Notes: a model not told the origin generated them from the sequence alone. Counted from the stretch's first letter, positions 4,010-55,624 are shown. The stretch is 64,000 bases of DNA from Escherichia coli (GCF_048403405.1 NZ_CP183129.1); one strand, 5' to 3'. Translations and numbers: made by a program.

Positions 4010-4699
4010 CTACTGGATCAGAAAATGACGGGCCAGTAGTGCACTGGTGAAATTCTTCTTCAAATAAAAGCCGCGTGGCAGCGTCAGAATCCGTTCGCCC
4101 CGGGCACCAATGGCTTCGGTAAGCGCTTTCGCATTCGCTGCTTTCGGTCGTATCTGTAAATATTCCCCGTGACGAGCGGTAATCCGCTCAACCTGACCGA
4201 GAACAATCATATCCATTAATTCTTCCCAGTCTTCGCGTAGCTGTCGGTCTTCCTCTTCATTCGGGCTCCACAGCAACGGTGATCCTACGCGACGCTGCGC
4301 TAGCGGGATGCTGCGCTCGCCTTCAACCGGTATCCACAGCACGCGTTTGAGCTTGTGGCGCACGTGGCTGGTTTCCCAGGTCACTCCGCTATTGCCCGTT
4401 AACGGGGCAACACAAACGAATGTTGTTTCCAGCGGACGACCAAGACTATCCACAGGGATAGTTTTAAGTTCCACGCCCAGAGCAGCAAAATCTTGCTCAG
4501 GTTTACTCCCTGCGCTGGCACCTAGCCAGATCTCCAGTAACACGCCAATCCAGCCCTTATCGCGTTTTAAATTCTCTGGCGTAACCAGCCCGGCAAGTGC
4601 CGCCAGTTCTCCCAATGTATAACCAGAAAGTTGTTGTGCTTGCGCTAACAACTGTTCTTCAGTTTCGGGAGGAGAGAGCAGTGGGCGAGGTTGGGACAT
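4010..4699 (-). CDS. mutH: methyl-directed mismatch repair endonuclease MutH
   Basis: 229-aa ORF in the expected position; sequence consistent with MutH. Confidence 0.9.
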
Positions 4700-4859
4700 G
4701 TCACGATACCTTGGTTAAAAAACAAACAGCAATTATGTGCCGAATATTCGCAGTGTAACTTTTTCCACATGCGTTGTTCAATTCTCTGATTTATATTGCT
4801 TTTTAGGCTTCCTGTAATCGAGTTGCGCAACACTGCAACGGGTTTTCCAAATCTGGTCA

Positions 4860-5260
4860 CTGAAAATAAACAGGATCTTACACCATGTTATCCACAGAAA
4901 GCTGGGATAACTGTGAAAAACCTCCACTACTGTTTCCATTTACAGCCTTGACGTGCGACGAAACTCCAGTTTTTAGTGGTTCAGTGCTTAACTTAGTGGC
5001 ACATTCTGTGGATAAATACGGCATTGGTTGATCTTTAGCCAACCCGTAAATGAGAGGTGTGACCTGGGTCACGAATTACTCTTTTTTATTACTCAAATTA
5101 CATGTAATGCATTGACTGATAATGAATATTTTAAAATGTCTATATCGGGCTTATTCAGAATGCTCCGGGTTTTCCCGTAGTAATTCCGTAGTTCTTCACA
5201 ACTCTATCCACAGAAAAGGTGAATAAAAACGGCTATCCACCCCTTCCTCTGTTTATAACT
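4860..5260. promoter_or_regulatory. DARS2: DnaA-box cluster in the mutH-rppH intergenic region, consistent with DARS2 (DnaA-reactivating sequence 2)
   Basis: Seen: TTATCCACA at about 4888-4896 (+); an 8/9 box on the opposite strand at about 4910-4918; a perfect box on the opposite strand at about 5007-5015 (tgtggataa); cTATCCACA at about 5204-5212. From memory, DARS2 maps to the mutH-ygdP(rppH) intergenic region in K-12. Confidence 0.5.
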
Positions 5261-5383
5261 CTGCACATAACTGTGAGTTATTCAATTGTTATTAGTGTGT
5301 AATGCCCTGCAGAGAGTGGTTTACCGTCTTCCTGGAGTATGAAACAATCATTCGTATATAAAGCTTTATTTTGAGGTAGTCCG

Positions 5384-5914
5384 GTGATTGATGACGATGG
5401 CTACCGCCCAAACGTAGGTATCGTGATTTGTAATCGCCAGGGGCAGGTAATGTGGGCCCGGCGATTTGGTCAGCACTCCTGGCAATTTCCGCAAGGCGGA
5501 ATCAACCCCGGAGAATCCGCAGAGCAGGCGATGTACCGTGAATTGTTTGAAGAAGTGGGATTAAGCCGTAAAGACGTTCGAATCCTTGCTTCAACGCGTA
5601 ACTGGTTGCGCTACAAATTACCGAAACGTTTGGTGCGTTGGGACACGAAGCCGGTTTGTATCGGCCAAAAACAAAAATGGTTTCTCTTGCAGCTGGTGAG
5701 CGGCGATGCAGAAATCAATATGCAAACCAGCAGTACACCAGAGTTTGACGGCTGGCGATGGGTAAGTTACTGGTATCCGGTCAGACAGGTGGTGTCATTT
5801 AAACGTGATGTCTACCGTAGGGTAATGAAAGAGTTCGCGAGTGTGGTGATGTCACTGCAGGAAAATACACCAAAACCACAAAACGCATCTGCTTATCGAC
5901 GTAAAAGAGGTTAA
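5384..5914 (+). CDS. rppH: RNA pyrophosphohydrolase (Nudix)
   Basis: 176-aa ORF with a Nudix box ([22 protein letters not shown]); followed closely by ptsP. Confidence 0.9.
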
Positions 5915-5926
5915 GTCACGCCAATT

Positions 5927-8173
5927 ATGCTCACTCGCCTGCGCGAAATAGTCGAAAAGGTAGCCAGCGCACCACGCCTGAATGAGGCGTTAAATATTCT
6001 GGTTACCGACATCTGTCTTGCGATGGATACCGAGGTCTGTTCGGTTTACCTTGCCGATCATGATCGACGTTGTTACTACCTGATGGCGACCCGGGGGCTG
6101 AAAAAACCACGCGGTCGCACTGTAACGCTCGCGTTTGATGAAGGGATCGTCGGCCTGGTTGGCAGGCTGGCGGAACCGATAAACCTTGCAGATGCGCAAA
6201 AGCACCCCAGCTTCAAATACATCCCCTCCGTAAAAGAAGAACGTTTCCGCGCGTTTTTAGGCGTACCAATTATTCAACGTCGCCAGTTGCTTGGTGTACT
6301 GGTGGTACAGCAACGAGAGTTGCGCCAGTATGACGAAAGTGAAGAATCCTTCCTGGTGACGCTTGCCACCCAGATGGCTGCGATTCTTTCTCAGTCGCAG
6401 TTGACTGCCTTGTTTGGGCAATATCGCCAGACGCGAATCCGTGCATTACCGGCAGCGCCTGGTGTAGCGATTGCCGAAGGCTGGCAGGATGCCACGTTAC
6501 CTTTAATGGAACAGGTGTATCAGGCATCAACGCTGGATCCAGCTCTGGAACGCGAACGACTGACCGGGGCGCTGGAAGAAGCGGCAAACGAGTTTCGCCG
6601 CTACAGCAAACGCTTTGCCGCCGGTGCACAAAAAGAAACGGCGGCTATTTTCGATCTTTACTCACACCTGCTTTCGGATACCCGGCTGCGGCGCGAATTG
6701 TTTGCCGAGGTTGATAAAGGCTCGGTGGCAGAGTGGGCGGTAAAAACGGTCATTGAAAAATTTGCCGAACAGTTTGCCGCGCTAAGCGATAACTATCTCA
6801 AAGAGCGGGCTGGCGATTTACGTGCGCTGGGTCAGCGATTGCTGTTTCATCTTGATGACGCTAATCAAGGGCCGAACGCCTGGCCGGAACGTTTCATTCT
6901 GGTGGCAGATGAACTGTCAGCGACAACGCTTGCAGAGCTGCCCCAGGATCGCTTAGTCGGTGTTGTCGTGCGAGATGGCGCAGCCAACTCCCATGCTGCG
7001 ATCATGGTACGTGCGCTGGGGATCCCTACCGTAATGGGCGCGGATATTCAGCCTTCGGTGCTGCATCGTCGGACGTTGATCGTCGATGGTTATCGCGGTG
7101 AATTGCTGGTCGATCCGGAGCCGGTACTGCTGCAAGAATATCAGCGGCTAATTAGTGAAGAGATTGAGCTTAGCCGTCTGGCGGAAGATGACGTCAATTT
7201 ACCCGCCCAGTTAAAAAGCGGCGAGCGCATTAAAGTCATGCTCAATGCCGGTTTAAGCCCGGAACATGAAGAAAAACTGGGCAGCCGTATTGATGGCATC
7301 GGTCTTTATCGCACTGAAATCCCATTCATGCTGCAAAGTGGTTTTCCGTCGGAAGAAGAACAGGTGGCGCAGTATCAGGGGATGCTGCAAATGTTCAATG
7401 ATAAACCCGTCACCTTGCGTACGCTGGATGTCGGAGCAGATAAGCAGCTGCCTTACATGCCGATCAGCGAAGAGAATCCATGCCTGGGTTGGCGTGGGAT
7501 TCGCATTACGCTCGATCAGCCGGAGATCTTCTTGATCCAGGTGCGGGCGATGCTGCGTGCTAATGCCGCTACGGGCAACCTGAATATTCTGTTGCCGATG
7601 GTCACCAGCCTCGATGAAGTTGACGAAGCACGCCGCCTGATTGAACGTGCAGGACGTGAAGTCGAGGAGATGATCGGTTACGAAATTCCCAAACCACGTA
7701 TCGGCATCATGCTGGAAGTGCCGTCAATGGTATTTATGCTGCCGCATCTGGCAAAGCGGGTCGATTTTATCTCTGTTGGCACCAACGATCTGACTCAATA
7801 CATCCTGGCCGTTGATCGCAATAATACCCGGGTGGCGAACATTTATGACAGTCTTCATCCTGCAATGTTACGAGCTCTGGCGATGATCGCCCGGGAAGCG
7901 GAAATACATGGAATCGATCTCCGTTTGTGCGGTGAAATGGCGGGCGATCCCATGTGCGTGGCAATCCTCATTGGGCTTGGGTATCGCCATCTGTCTATGA
8001 ACGGACGTTCTGTAGCGCGCGTAAAATACCTGCTGCGGCGCATTGATTTTGCCGAAGCAGAAAATCTTGCGCAGCGTAGTCTGGAAGCGCAACTGGCGAC
8101 CGAAGTTCGCCATCAGGTTGCAGCCTTTATGGAGCGTCGCGGCATGGGCGGGCTGATTCGCGGAGGGTTATAG
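5927..8173 (+). CDS. ptsP: phosphoenolpyruvate-protein phosphotransferase EI-Ntr (GAF domain + PEP-utilising enzyme)
   Basis: 748-aa ORF; N-terminal GAF-like region followed by Enzyme I domains; synteny with rppH. Confidence 0.9.
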   Translation: MLTRLREIVEKVASAPRLNEALNILVTDICLAMDTEVCSVYLADHDRRCYYLMATRGLKKPRGRTVTLAFDEGIVGLVGRLAEPINLADAQKHPSFKYIPSVKEERFRAFLGVPIIQRRQLLGVLVVQQRELRQYDESEESFLVTLATQMAAILSQSQLTALFGQYRQTRIRALPAAPGVAIAEGWQDATLPLMEQVYQASTLDPALERERLTGALEEAANEFRRYSKRFAAGAQKETAAIFDLYSHLLSDTRLRRELFAEVDKGSVAEWAVKTVIEKFAEQFAALSDNYLKERAGDLRALGQRLLFHLDDANQGPNAWPERFILVADELSATTLAELPQDRLVGVVVRDGAANSHAAIMVRALGIPTVMGADIQPSVLHRRTLIVDGYRGELLVDPEPVLLQEYQRLISEEIELSRLAEDDVNLPAQLKSGERIKVMLNAGLSPEHEEKLGSRIDGIGLYRTEIPFMLQSGFPSEEEQVAQYQGMLQMFNDKPVTLRTLDVGADKQLPYMPISEENPCLGWRGIRITLDQPEIFLIQVRAMLRANAATGNLNILLPMVTSLDEVDEARRLIERAGREVEEMIGYEIPKPRIGIMLEVPSMVFMLPHLAKRVDFISVGTNDLTQYILAVDRNNTRVANIYDSLHPAMLRALAMIAREAEIHGIDLRLCGEMAGDPMCVAILIGLGYRHLSMNGRSVARVKYLLRRIDFAEAENLAQRSLEAQLATEVRHQVAAFMERRGMGGLIRGGL

Positions 8174-32168: not shown

Positions 32169-32245
<77 letters not shown>

Positions 32246-32279
32246 TCACCGTACTGCTTTTACTTCATCAAATTTTGAT

Positions 32280-32356
<77 letters not shown>

Positions 32357-32389
32357 TCACCGTACTGCTTTACTTCATCAAATTTTAAT

Positions 32390-32466
<77 letters not shown>

Positions 32467-36788: not shown

Positions 36789-36994
36789 AAAAAAAAGCAC
36801 CGCAATTAGGCGGTGCTACATTAATCACTATGGACAGACAGGGTAAATGTACAGGAAGTGAAAAAAGGTAGCTTTGCTACCATGGTCTGAATCGCAGACC
36901 AATTGCAAACACAACAACACAACATCACAACCGTAAGCCAAAAGTTCACCAGAACACGCATTCCGATAAAACTTTTCGTTCCGGCTCAGGAAGT
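36789..36994 (-). ncRNA. gcvB: GcvB small regulatory RNA (GT-rich target-binding region, intrinsic terminator)
   Basis: Reverse complement reads ACTTCCTGAGCCGGAACG...GTTGTGATGTTGTGTTGTTGTGTTTGCAATTGG...GCACCGCCTAATTGCGGTGCTTTTTTTT, which matches gcvB as I remember it; divergent from gcvA. Confidence 0.85.
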
Positions 36995-55213: not shown

Positions 55214-55580
55214 GTCGACAGGGAGTCAGACAACGAAGTGAACATCAGGATGATGACACTTCTGAAGGACACACCAGGATGGTGTTTCAGGGAAAGGCTT
55301 CTGGATGAAGCGAAGAGGATGACGCAGGACGCGTTAAAGGACACCTCCAGGATGGAGAATGAGAACCGGTCAGGATGATTCGGTGGGTCAGGAAGGCCAG
55401 GGACACTTCAGGATGAAGTATCACATCGGGGTGGTGTGAGCAGGAAGCAATAGTTCAGGATGAACGATTGGCCGCAAGGCCAGAGGAAAAGTTGTCAAGG
55501 ATGAGCAGGGAGCAACAAAAGTAGCTGGAATGCTGCGAAACGAACCGGGAGCACTGTGAATACAGTGCTCCCTTTTTTTA
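55214..55580 (+). ncRNA. csrB: CsrB regulatory RNA (CsrA-sequestering; many GGA motifs; strong intrinsic terminator)
   Basis: Starts GTCGACAGGGAGTCAGACAACG...; roughly 18 CAGGA(U/A)G-type GGA motifs counted by eye; ends with hairpin gggagcactgtgaatacagtgctccc plus T8. Confidence 0.9.
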
Positions 55581-55624
55581 TTCCTGCTATCCTTCGCGGC
55601 AGTTTTTCTTATTGAGGTTGCTTT

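Follow-up and report, generated by a model that had tools for sequence, protein, structure and literature searches.

A DnaA-box cluster between mutH and rppH of Escherichia coli very probably corresponds to DARS2 and includes a conserved right half

Escherichia coli restores ATP-DnaA ahead of each replication round mainly through DARS2, which couples initiation to the cell cycle via IHF and to growth phase via Fis. The work of Fujimitsu in 2009 is said to be the founding DARS paper. The element has been placed upstream of mutH, in the gap that separates this gene from rppH (ygdP/nudH) (PMC11317965, PMC4585315). IHF- and Fis-dependent release of ADP from ADP-DnaA has been demonstrated for the K-12 sequence, and the minimal part of the element was shown to be sufficient (Kasho 2014, PMC4245941). 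A head-to-head DnaA dimer is formed on boxes I and II, with a 5-bp gap between the boxes and a requirement for Gln208 (Sugiyama 2019); boxes II and III together constitute the "double DnaA box" of published ChIP-seq. Box V is the seed of ATP-DnaA oligomers that evict Fis, and its substitution has a replication phenotype (Miyoshi 2021, PMC8682772). Binding of IHF at DARS2 is cell-cycle specific and that of Fis growth-phase specific, transcription through the element affects its activity, and both its chromosomal position and its sequence are under selection.

The stretch of E. coli DNA analysed here (64 kb, hereafter the window) contains a mutH-rppH gap of 684 bp (4700-5383), in keeping with a preliminary description of the same DNA that had noted a non-coding gap of about 680 bp between these two genes. 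Profile matches of the flanking ORFs place MutH and RppH on either side of the gap, with YgdQ behind MutH, and the arrangement is identical in K-12, where DARS2 has its place. Compared with K-12 MG1655 (2968978-2969661) the gap is 99% identical, with eight SNPs and no indels; 5424 of the 5426 complete E. coli genomes carry it, that of E. coli TUM14771 with 100% identity. None of the SNPs falls within the DnaA boxes or IBS1-2: one is located in FBS2 (5037), three at the right end of the element (4808, 4810, 4813), two between FBS1 and IBS1-2 (5087, 5094), and the remaining two in the mutH leader, beyond DARS2. Across 4650-5450 a search for RNA elements matched none of the Rfam families, even with E ≤1 allowed. 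Elsewhere in the window Rfam matches include CsrB sRNA (55223-55582, +), GcvB sRNA (36789-36994, -) and three tandem tRNA genes (32172-32466, -), all of which fit the K-12 neighbourhood at ~2.91-2.97 Mb. Judged by these sequence comparisons, the stretch 4700-5383 very probably (about 0.97) contains DARS2 (DnaA-reactivating sequence 2) of E. coli, regenerating ATP-DnaA from ADP-DnaA, and nowhere does the sequence argue against this identification. DARS2 is already known and intensively studied, and recognising it here adds nothing new on the system.

The DnaA boxes of the window were scored with the consensus TTWTNCACA, either exactly or with at most one mismatch. Eight exact boxes are present in the 64 kb, half of them inside the gap (Poisson ~2e-6), at 4761-4769 (+), 4888-4896 (+), 4912-4920 (-) and 5007-5015 (-). 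Within the 455 bp of DARS2 there are eight boxes with at most one mismatch against 0.77 expected (Poisson ~1.5e-6), while outside 4200-5400 every 455-bp stretch has no more than five of these and at most one exact box. The mutH-rppH gap is the densest DnaA-box cluster of the window, and a genuine regulatory site could be recognised there from box density alone. The perfect box TTATCCACA occurs in the 64 kb only at 4888-4896 (+) and 5007-5015 (-), the two places and strands at which it had been reported from the first inspection. The cTATCCACA box described at 5204-5212 is likewise found, on the plus strand, and the extended motif said to be common to two boxes proves to be tatccacagaaa, at 4889-4900 and 5205-5216; the box at 5007-5015 has tatccacagaa in common with it. 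A near-perfect opposite-strand box close to the first perfect one does exist (TTTTTCACA, in fact an exact TTWTNCACA), at 4912-4920 rather than 4910-4918 and at a distance of 15 rather than 13 bp. The two perfect boxes of the preliminary description are the non-core boxes VI and V, which are dispensable for nucleotide exchange; only its 5204-5212 box (II) belongs to the core, and boxes I, III and IV, with one mismatch each, had been overlooked.

Positions of individual elements (Table 1) were obtained by mapping published DARS2 reagents on the window (Kasho 2014, PMC4245941 supplement; Miyoshi 2021, PMC8682772 supplement; Frimodt-Moller 2015, PMC4585315), with the assignments of boxes I-III resting on primers and text of papers later than Fujimitsu 2009. 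These primers and oligonucleotides fall on the gap, as expected from its earlier equation with DARS2, although the range then proposed (4860-5260) covers most, not all, of the full-length element. Alignment locates the published core, identical to that of K-12, at the 35 bp removed by the deltaCore primers, and the homology arms of the "box I-III" deletion of Frimodt-Moller 2015 (PMC4585315) border the same 35 bp. On the plus strand the core reads TTCTTCACA (III) act CTATCCACA (II) gaaaa GGTGAATAA (I, reverse strand); the opposite orientation and 5-bp separation of boxes I and II match Sugiyama 2019.

Table 1. Features of the mutH-rppH gap and its flanks, in window coordinates.
Feature	Position	Strand	Sequence	Basis or remark
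mutH	4010-4699	-		Left flank; 229-codon ORF; NCBIfam equivalog 1.8e-120
FBS6, Fis site	4825-4839	-	GTTGCAGTGTTGCGC	Dispensable; sequence in Miyoshi 2021 supplement; oligonucleotide FIS-4U 4817-4847
Full-length DARS2	4795-5249	-		455 bp exactly; primers MutH-4 (5231-5249) and MutH-2 (4795-4807), Kasho 2014; conventionally given as minus-strand sequence, core at rppH side
Second core-like triple	4876-4910	+	TCTTACACC-atg-TTATCCACA-gaaag-CTGGGATAA	9-3-9-5-9 layout and orientations of the core
ygdT	4885-5031	+		48-codon ORF annotated in RefSeq; overlaps boxes VI and V, inside DARS2
DnaA box VI	4888-4896	+	TTATCCACA	Perfect; substitution primers Ksh-34/35 flank exactly 9 bp
Exact TTWTNCACA box	4912-4920	-	TTTTTCACA	No numbered DARS2 box; <60% conservation across genera, kept in close relatives only
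Invariant 24-bp block	4929-4952		ACTGTTTCCATTTACAGCCTTGAC	CTGT-N8-ACAG, then -35-like TTGAC
FBS2-5 oligonucleotide	4997-5048			Miyoshi 2021; identical except SNP 5037; spans box V with low-affinity boxes V-a/b/c
DnaA box V	5007-5015	-	TTATCCACA	Perfect; Ksh-32/33 substitution exactly on 9 bp; in FBS2-5 oligonucleotide
Crucial 21-mer	5017-5037			Defined by MutH-11 vs MutH-17
FBS2-3, essential Fis sites (predicted)	5017-5040	-		FBS2 5026-5040; FBS3 5019-5033
Minimal DARS2 (deltaRight construct)	5017-5249	-		MutH-4 and MutH-11
FBS1, Fis site (predicted)	5067-5081			Exact GnnYAnnnnnTRnnC; dispensable; inside oligonucleotide FIS-1U 5059-5086
IBS1-2, IHF sites (predicted)	5105-5133		TAATGCATTGACT; TAAAATATTCATT	5105-5117 (+) and 5121-5133 (-); subIBS1-2 primers Ksh-16/19 flank 5112-5126
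DnaA box IV	5151-5159	+	TTATTCAGA	1 mismatch; dispensable; substitution primers Ksh-30/31 border exactly 9 bp
Core boxes I-III	5192-5226			35 bp removed by deltaCore primers MutH-14/15
Core DnaA box III	5192-5200	+	TTCTTCACA	1 mismatch; 3 bp from box II
Core DnaA box II	5204-5212	+	CTATCCACA	1 mismatch
Core DnaA box I	5218-5226	-	TTATTCACC	1 mismatch; identical to K-12
rppH (formerly ygdP/nudH)	5384-5914	+		Right flank; 176-codon ORF; NCBIfam equivalog 3.6e-106
ptsP	5927-8173			Behind rppH

The two IHF sites, placed between the core and the Fis sites, lie 3 bp apart, as stated in Kasho 2014, and are identical to those of K-12. No other place in the gap matches the IHF consensus TAAnnnnTTGATW with at most one mismatch, and the Fis consensus is matched exactly at the published FBS1 and with one mismatch at FBS2 and FBS3. 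This agreement corroborates the map without proving it, because both consensus sequences are loose (with the thresholds applied, they match 372 and 1462 times across the window) and constitute weak evidence by themselves. FBS3 is identical to K-12. At FBS2 the SNP at 5037, which is the first base of the 21-mer and reads G-to-T on the DARS2 strand, changes GGCGAAAGATCAACC of K-12 to GGCTAAAGATCAACC and reduces the mismatches to the Fis consensus from two to one; Vibrio species have GGTTAAAGATCAACC. FBS-2 variants have been reported in natural strains. A palindrome inside FBS1, GTGACCTGGGTCAC (5059-5072), was scored as terminator-like; it was rejected as a matS site, being 14 bp long vs the 13 bp of matS and not conserved.

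The working of DARS2 has been demonstrated for K-12 (PMC4245941, PMC6868365, PMC8682772, PMC11724364) and is assigned to the present allele because of its near-identity (99%) to the K-12 sequence. In this scheme ADP-DnaA would occupy core boxes I-III. Boxes I and II face in opposite directions across 5 bp, and the protomers bound to them would form a head-to-head AAA+ dimer, a step for which Gln208 is needed. IHF at IBS1-2 would loop the DNA, negative supercoiling helping or stabilising the loop, which would in turn let Fis at FBS2-3 contact the AAA+ dimer. ADP would be released, and the resulting apo-DnaA would then rebind ATP. Rising ATP-DnaA would oligomerise from box V across FBS2-5 and evict Fis, turning DARS2 off in a negative feedback.

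Conservation was surveyed in 80 loci of other species with RppH as the anchor. In 67 of the 80 the 35-bp core occurs with at most four mismatches, its distance upstream of the rppH start being 154-172 bp. Core-bearing loci range from Escherichia, Yersinia, Serratia, Erwinia and Pectobacterium to Vibrio, Photobacterium and Aliivibrio, with mutH divergent in all. Loci without a core beside rppH include those of the Morganellaceae and Ca. Photodesmus (L037, L045, L046, L050, L053, L055, L057, L060, L061, L077). Nine Morganellaceae loci (Photorhabdus, Providencia, Arsenophonus, Morganella) have neither the core nor mutH within 2.5 kb upstream of rppH; a Photorhabdus DARS2 homologue is listed in papers, and the Morganellaceae core is presumably elsewhere in the genome. 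In Ca. Photodesmus, with its reduced genome, mutH and rppH are adjacent across a gap of 183 bp that contains no core.

When the gaps of 50 Enterobacterales loci were aligned with that of the window, blocks conserved at ≥95% stood out from a background of ~60% identity, at 4866-4911 (box VI and flanks), 4930-4952, 5006-5016 (box V), 5026-5037 (FBS2-3, including a GATC) and 5192-5228 (core), with several further such blocks on the rppH side of the core. Sequence conservation of the IBS region is weak in this alignment. The DnaA boxes are invariant over ~40 genera and the sequence between them drifts. Vibrionaceae retain the core, an equivalent of box V, GGTTGATCTTTA of FBS2-3, and TTATCCACAGG at the position of box VI. 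Two GATC (Dam methylation) sites are kept across Enterobacterales, one at 4874-4877, overlapping box III' (4876-4884) next to box VI, and one at 5030-5033, inside FBS2-3; that they might tie DARS2 activity to replication-fork passage through hemimethylation and SeqA is pure speculation.

The right half of DARS2 is conserved as strongly as the catalytic core. A scan of the 64 kb for the layout of the core (box, 3 bp, box, 5 bp, reverse box) returned two places only, the core itself with three mismatches in total and a second triple around box VI with five, where 0.045 such hits are expected by chance. The second triple is on the same strand as the core and 316 bp from it, is conserved at ≥95% over the 50 Enterobacterales loci, and is identical to the K-12 DARS1 core at 25 of 35 positions, as compared with 24 of 35 for the true DARS2 core. 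Its resemblance to the core accounts for the occurrence of tatccacagaaa in both. The conserved opposite-strand partner of box VI is box I', located at 4902-4910, across a 5-bp gap, and the exact box at 4912-4920 was rejected in that role. In published assays the triple is no free-standing DARS, because the deltaCore plasmid, in which it is still present, is inactive and substitution of box VI is without effect (Kasho 2014, PMC4245941). A literature search, which was not exhaustive, found no description of the triple; box VI of DARS2 was treated in Kasho 2014 alone, as dispensable, and the 24-bp block that follows was not mentioned.

Of the 50 Enterobacterales loci that have the core, 48 carry this block (Table 1) with 0-2 mismatches, at a distance of 261-264 bp from the core; Vibrionaceae lack it. 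As a candidate LexA box it is borderline, a weak lead: 4928-4947 scores 12.0 bits with a matrix made from 26 E. coli SOS boxes, second best in the window, at a level that ~2 sites per 64 kb attain. Those 26 boxes themselves score 8-26 bits (median ~19) with a heterology index of at most 9.1, against an approximate index of 11-12 for the block, and the non-exhaustive literature search found no link between LexA and DARS2. As a promoter the block was rejected, for TTGACG could serve as a -35 but there is no conserved -10 at 16-18 bp on either strand. Compared by eye with consensus sequences, it offers no convincing fit as a CRP, Cra, FadR, PhoP, OmpR, CpxR, IHF or Fis site.

Measured from the core, box V lies at 186 bp, the 24-bp block at 263 bp and the box VI triple at 316 bp, and each of these distances is kept within 2 bp in core-bearing Enterobacterales (~40 genera; loci L002-L059). 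Such constant spacing argues for a fixed three-dimensional arrangement that takes in the right half. One tentative reading, which we hold to be somewhat improbable, is that the right half (~4866-5016) may be a conserved regulatory module of fixed geometry rather than a set of spare DnaA boxes. If true, the module could tune DARS2 or adjacent promoters in the chromosome to DnaA state or DNA damage. What interest remains in the locus is modest and attaches to this conserved architecture, called dispensable in plasmid assays, which is a target for chromosomal mutagenesis.

A different explanation for boxes V and VI is that they serve mainly as a high-affinity sink for DnaA, titrating the protein as at datA and standing apart from the reactivation machinery. 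DnaA ChIP-seq in K-12 gave peaks at 2969124, 2969306 and 2969501, with enrichments of 78x, 199x and 213x, that transfer to window positions 5237 (near the core), 5055 (near box V) and 4860 (near box VI), the last being the strongest of the locus. In K-12 the right half, box VI included, is strongly bound by DnaA in vivo, and exchange in plasmid assays proceeds without it. That the two strongest peaks, at the level of datA and oriC, are located near V and VI rather than at the core would suit a sink, as would the dispensability of boxes IV-VI for DARS2-driven over-initiation and the support for titration by chromosomal boxes in PMC12371093. For box V, however, a role in evicting Fis through oligomerisation of ATP-DnaA has been demonstrated, and its substitution gives a replication phenotype; distances among the core, V and VI that hold to within 2 bp across Enterobacterales are not expected of a simple sink. 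We regard this explanation as unlikely, and prefer to treat boxes V and VI as part of DARS2.

The surroundings of DARS2 also have features of promoters. A promoter scan of the gap yielded one weak mutH-side promoter (-35 at 4759-4754), no more than in shuffled sequences. Directly upstream of this predicted promoter and outside the published DARS2 is the exact DnaA box TTTTCCACA (4761-4769, +), which is not conserved beyond close relatives. Between the left end of DARS2 and rppH there are strongly conserved blocks at 5251-5261, 5277-5284, 5317-5329 and 5340-5354. Just beyond the published 455 bp, GTTTATAACTC may be read as a -10-like TATAAC or, on the minus strand, as a 1-mismatch DnaA box, TTATAAACA; the spacing of TGGTTTACCGTC and TGAAACAATCATT resembles that of a -35 and an extended -10. 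From their sequence the conserved blocks are likely to be elements of a predicted rppH promoter.

With these features in view, the DnaA boxes might be taken to be mainly transcriptional operators for divergent mutH and rppH-ptsP promoters and not a nucleotide-exchange site. DnaA is known to regulate transcription and, by K-12 ChIP-seq, binds strongly in the gap, the consensus box at 4761-4769 abuts the predicted mutH promoter, conserved promoter-like blocks (5251-5261 and 5317-5354) stand beside the core, and deletion of DARS2 altered the proteome beyond expectation (PMC12371093). Yet the exchange activity of the K-12 element has been reconstituted with purified proteins and needs the core, IBS1-2 and FBS2-3, and DARS2 is functional when relocated on the chromosome or put on plasmids. 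DnaA control of mutH or rppH was moreover not found in the literature search, and the box at 4761-4769 lacks conservation. As a replacement for DARS2 the operator explanation is very unlikely; a transcriptional role of the boxes can only add to their exchange role.

In RefSeq a gene, ygdT, is annotated over boxes VI and V. Only three of 51 aligned sequences, all from Escherichia, retain both its start codon and an open frame, in agreement with the preliminary description's view that the ORFs of the gap are probably not genes. Reading boxes VI and V and the 24-bp block in frame yields the conserved pieces of its "peptide", and third codon positions are not relaxed; ygdT has no protein family match, and the papers found to mention it contain no evidence of its expression. 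As a real gene ygdT is rejected on conservation: since start codon and frame are kept in Escherichia only, it is probably an annotation artefact over conserved protein-binding DNA, and a conserved gene is unlikely. That the cluster should consist of AT-rich 9-mers gathered by chance in a long stretch between genes, or be a by-product of ygdT coding, is hardly conceivable, for although the eight exact boxes window-wide do not exceed the shuffled expectation (5.4) and the annotated ygdT does span VI and V, both versions are refuted by a local density at least 10-fold over expectation (~1e-6), by the recurrence of the core beside rppH in other species, by boxes that stay invariant over ~40 genera amid drifting sequence, and by the loss of the ygdT start and frame outside Escherichia without relaxed third positions.

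Of the known systems, DARS2 of K-12 MG1655 (NC_000913.3, about 2969112-2969566) is the closest, sharing with the present locus the flanking genes, the 684-bp gap and 99% identity, as well as the six numbered DnaA boxes, IBS1-2, FBS1, FBS3, FBS4-5 and FBS6, all with identical spacings. The two differ by the eight SNPs, of which only that at 5037 (FBS2) falls in a named element, where the change is towards the Fis consensus. DARS1, in the bioD-uvrB intergenic region, likewise has a 9-3-9-5-9 arrangement of three boxes in which I and II face opposite ways, and its K-12 core, TAATACACAtggTTATCCACAggaatAGTGGATAA, is identical to the DARS2 core here at 24 of 35 positions. It differs in being 101 bp long, in having no IHF/Fis regulatory arm and working without these proteins, and in occupying another locus, outside the window. 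datA resembles DARS2 as a non-coding DnaA-box cluster with an IHF site that controls the nucleotide state of DnaA, and has comparably high DnaA occupancy in ChIP. In contrast to DARS2, it promotes hydrolysis of DnaA-bound ATP, has head-to-tail boxes, a single IBS and no need for Fis, and is located at glyVXY-queG; the cluster described here is at another locus and has another box arrangement. The DnaA-oligomerisation region of oriC likewise has IHF and Fis sites together with DnaA boxes of both high and low affinity, and the box V-a/b/c array behaves like the head-to-tail arrays of oriC. Unlike oriC, DARS2 is without a duplex-unwinding element or a replication start, and its catalytic boxes are arranged head-to-head.
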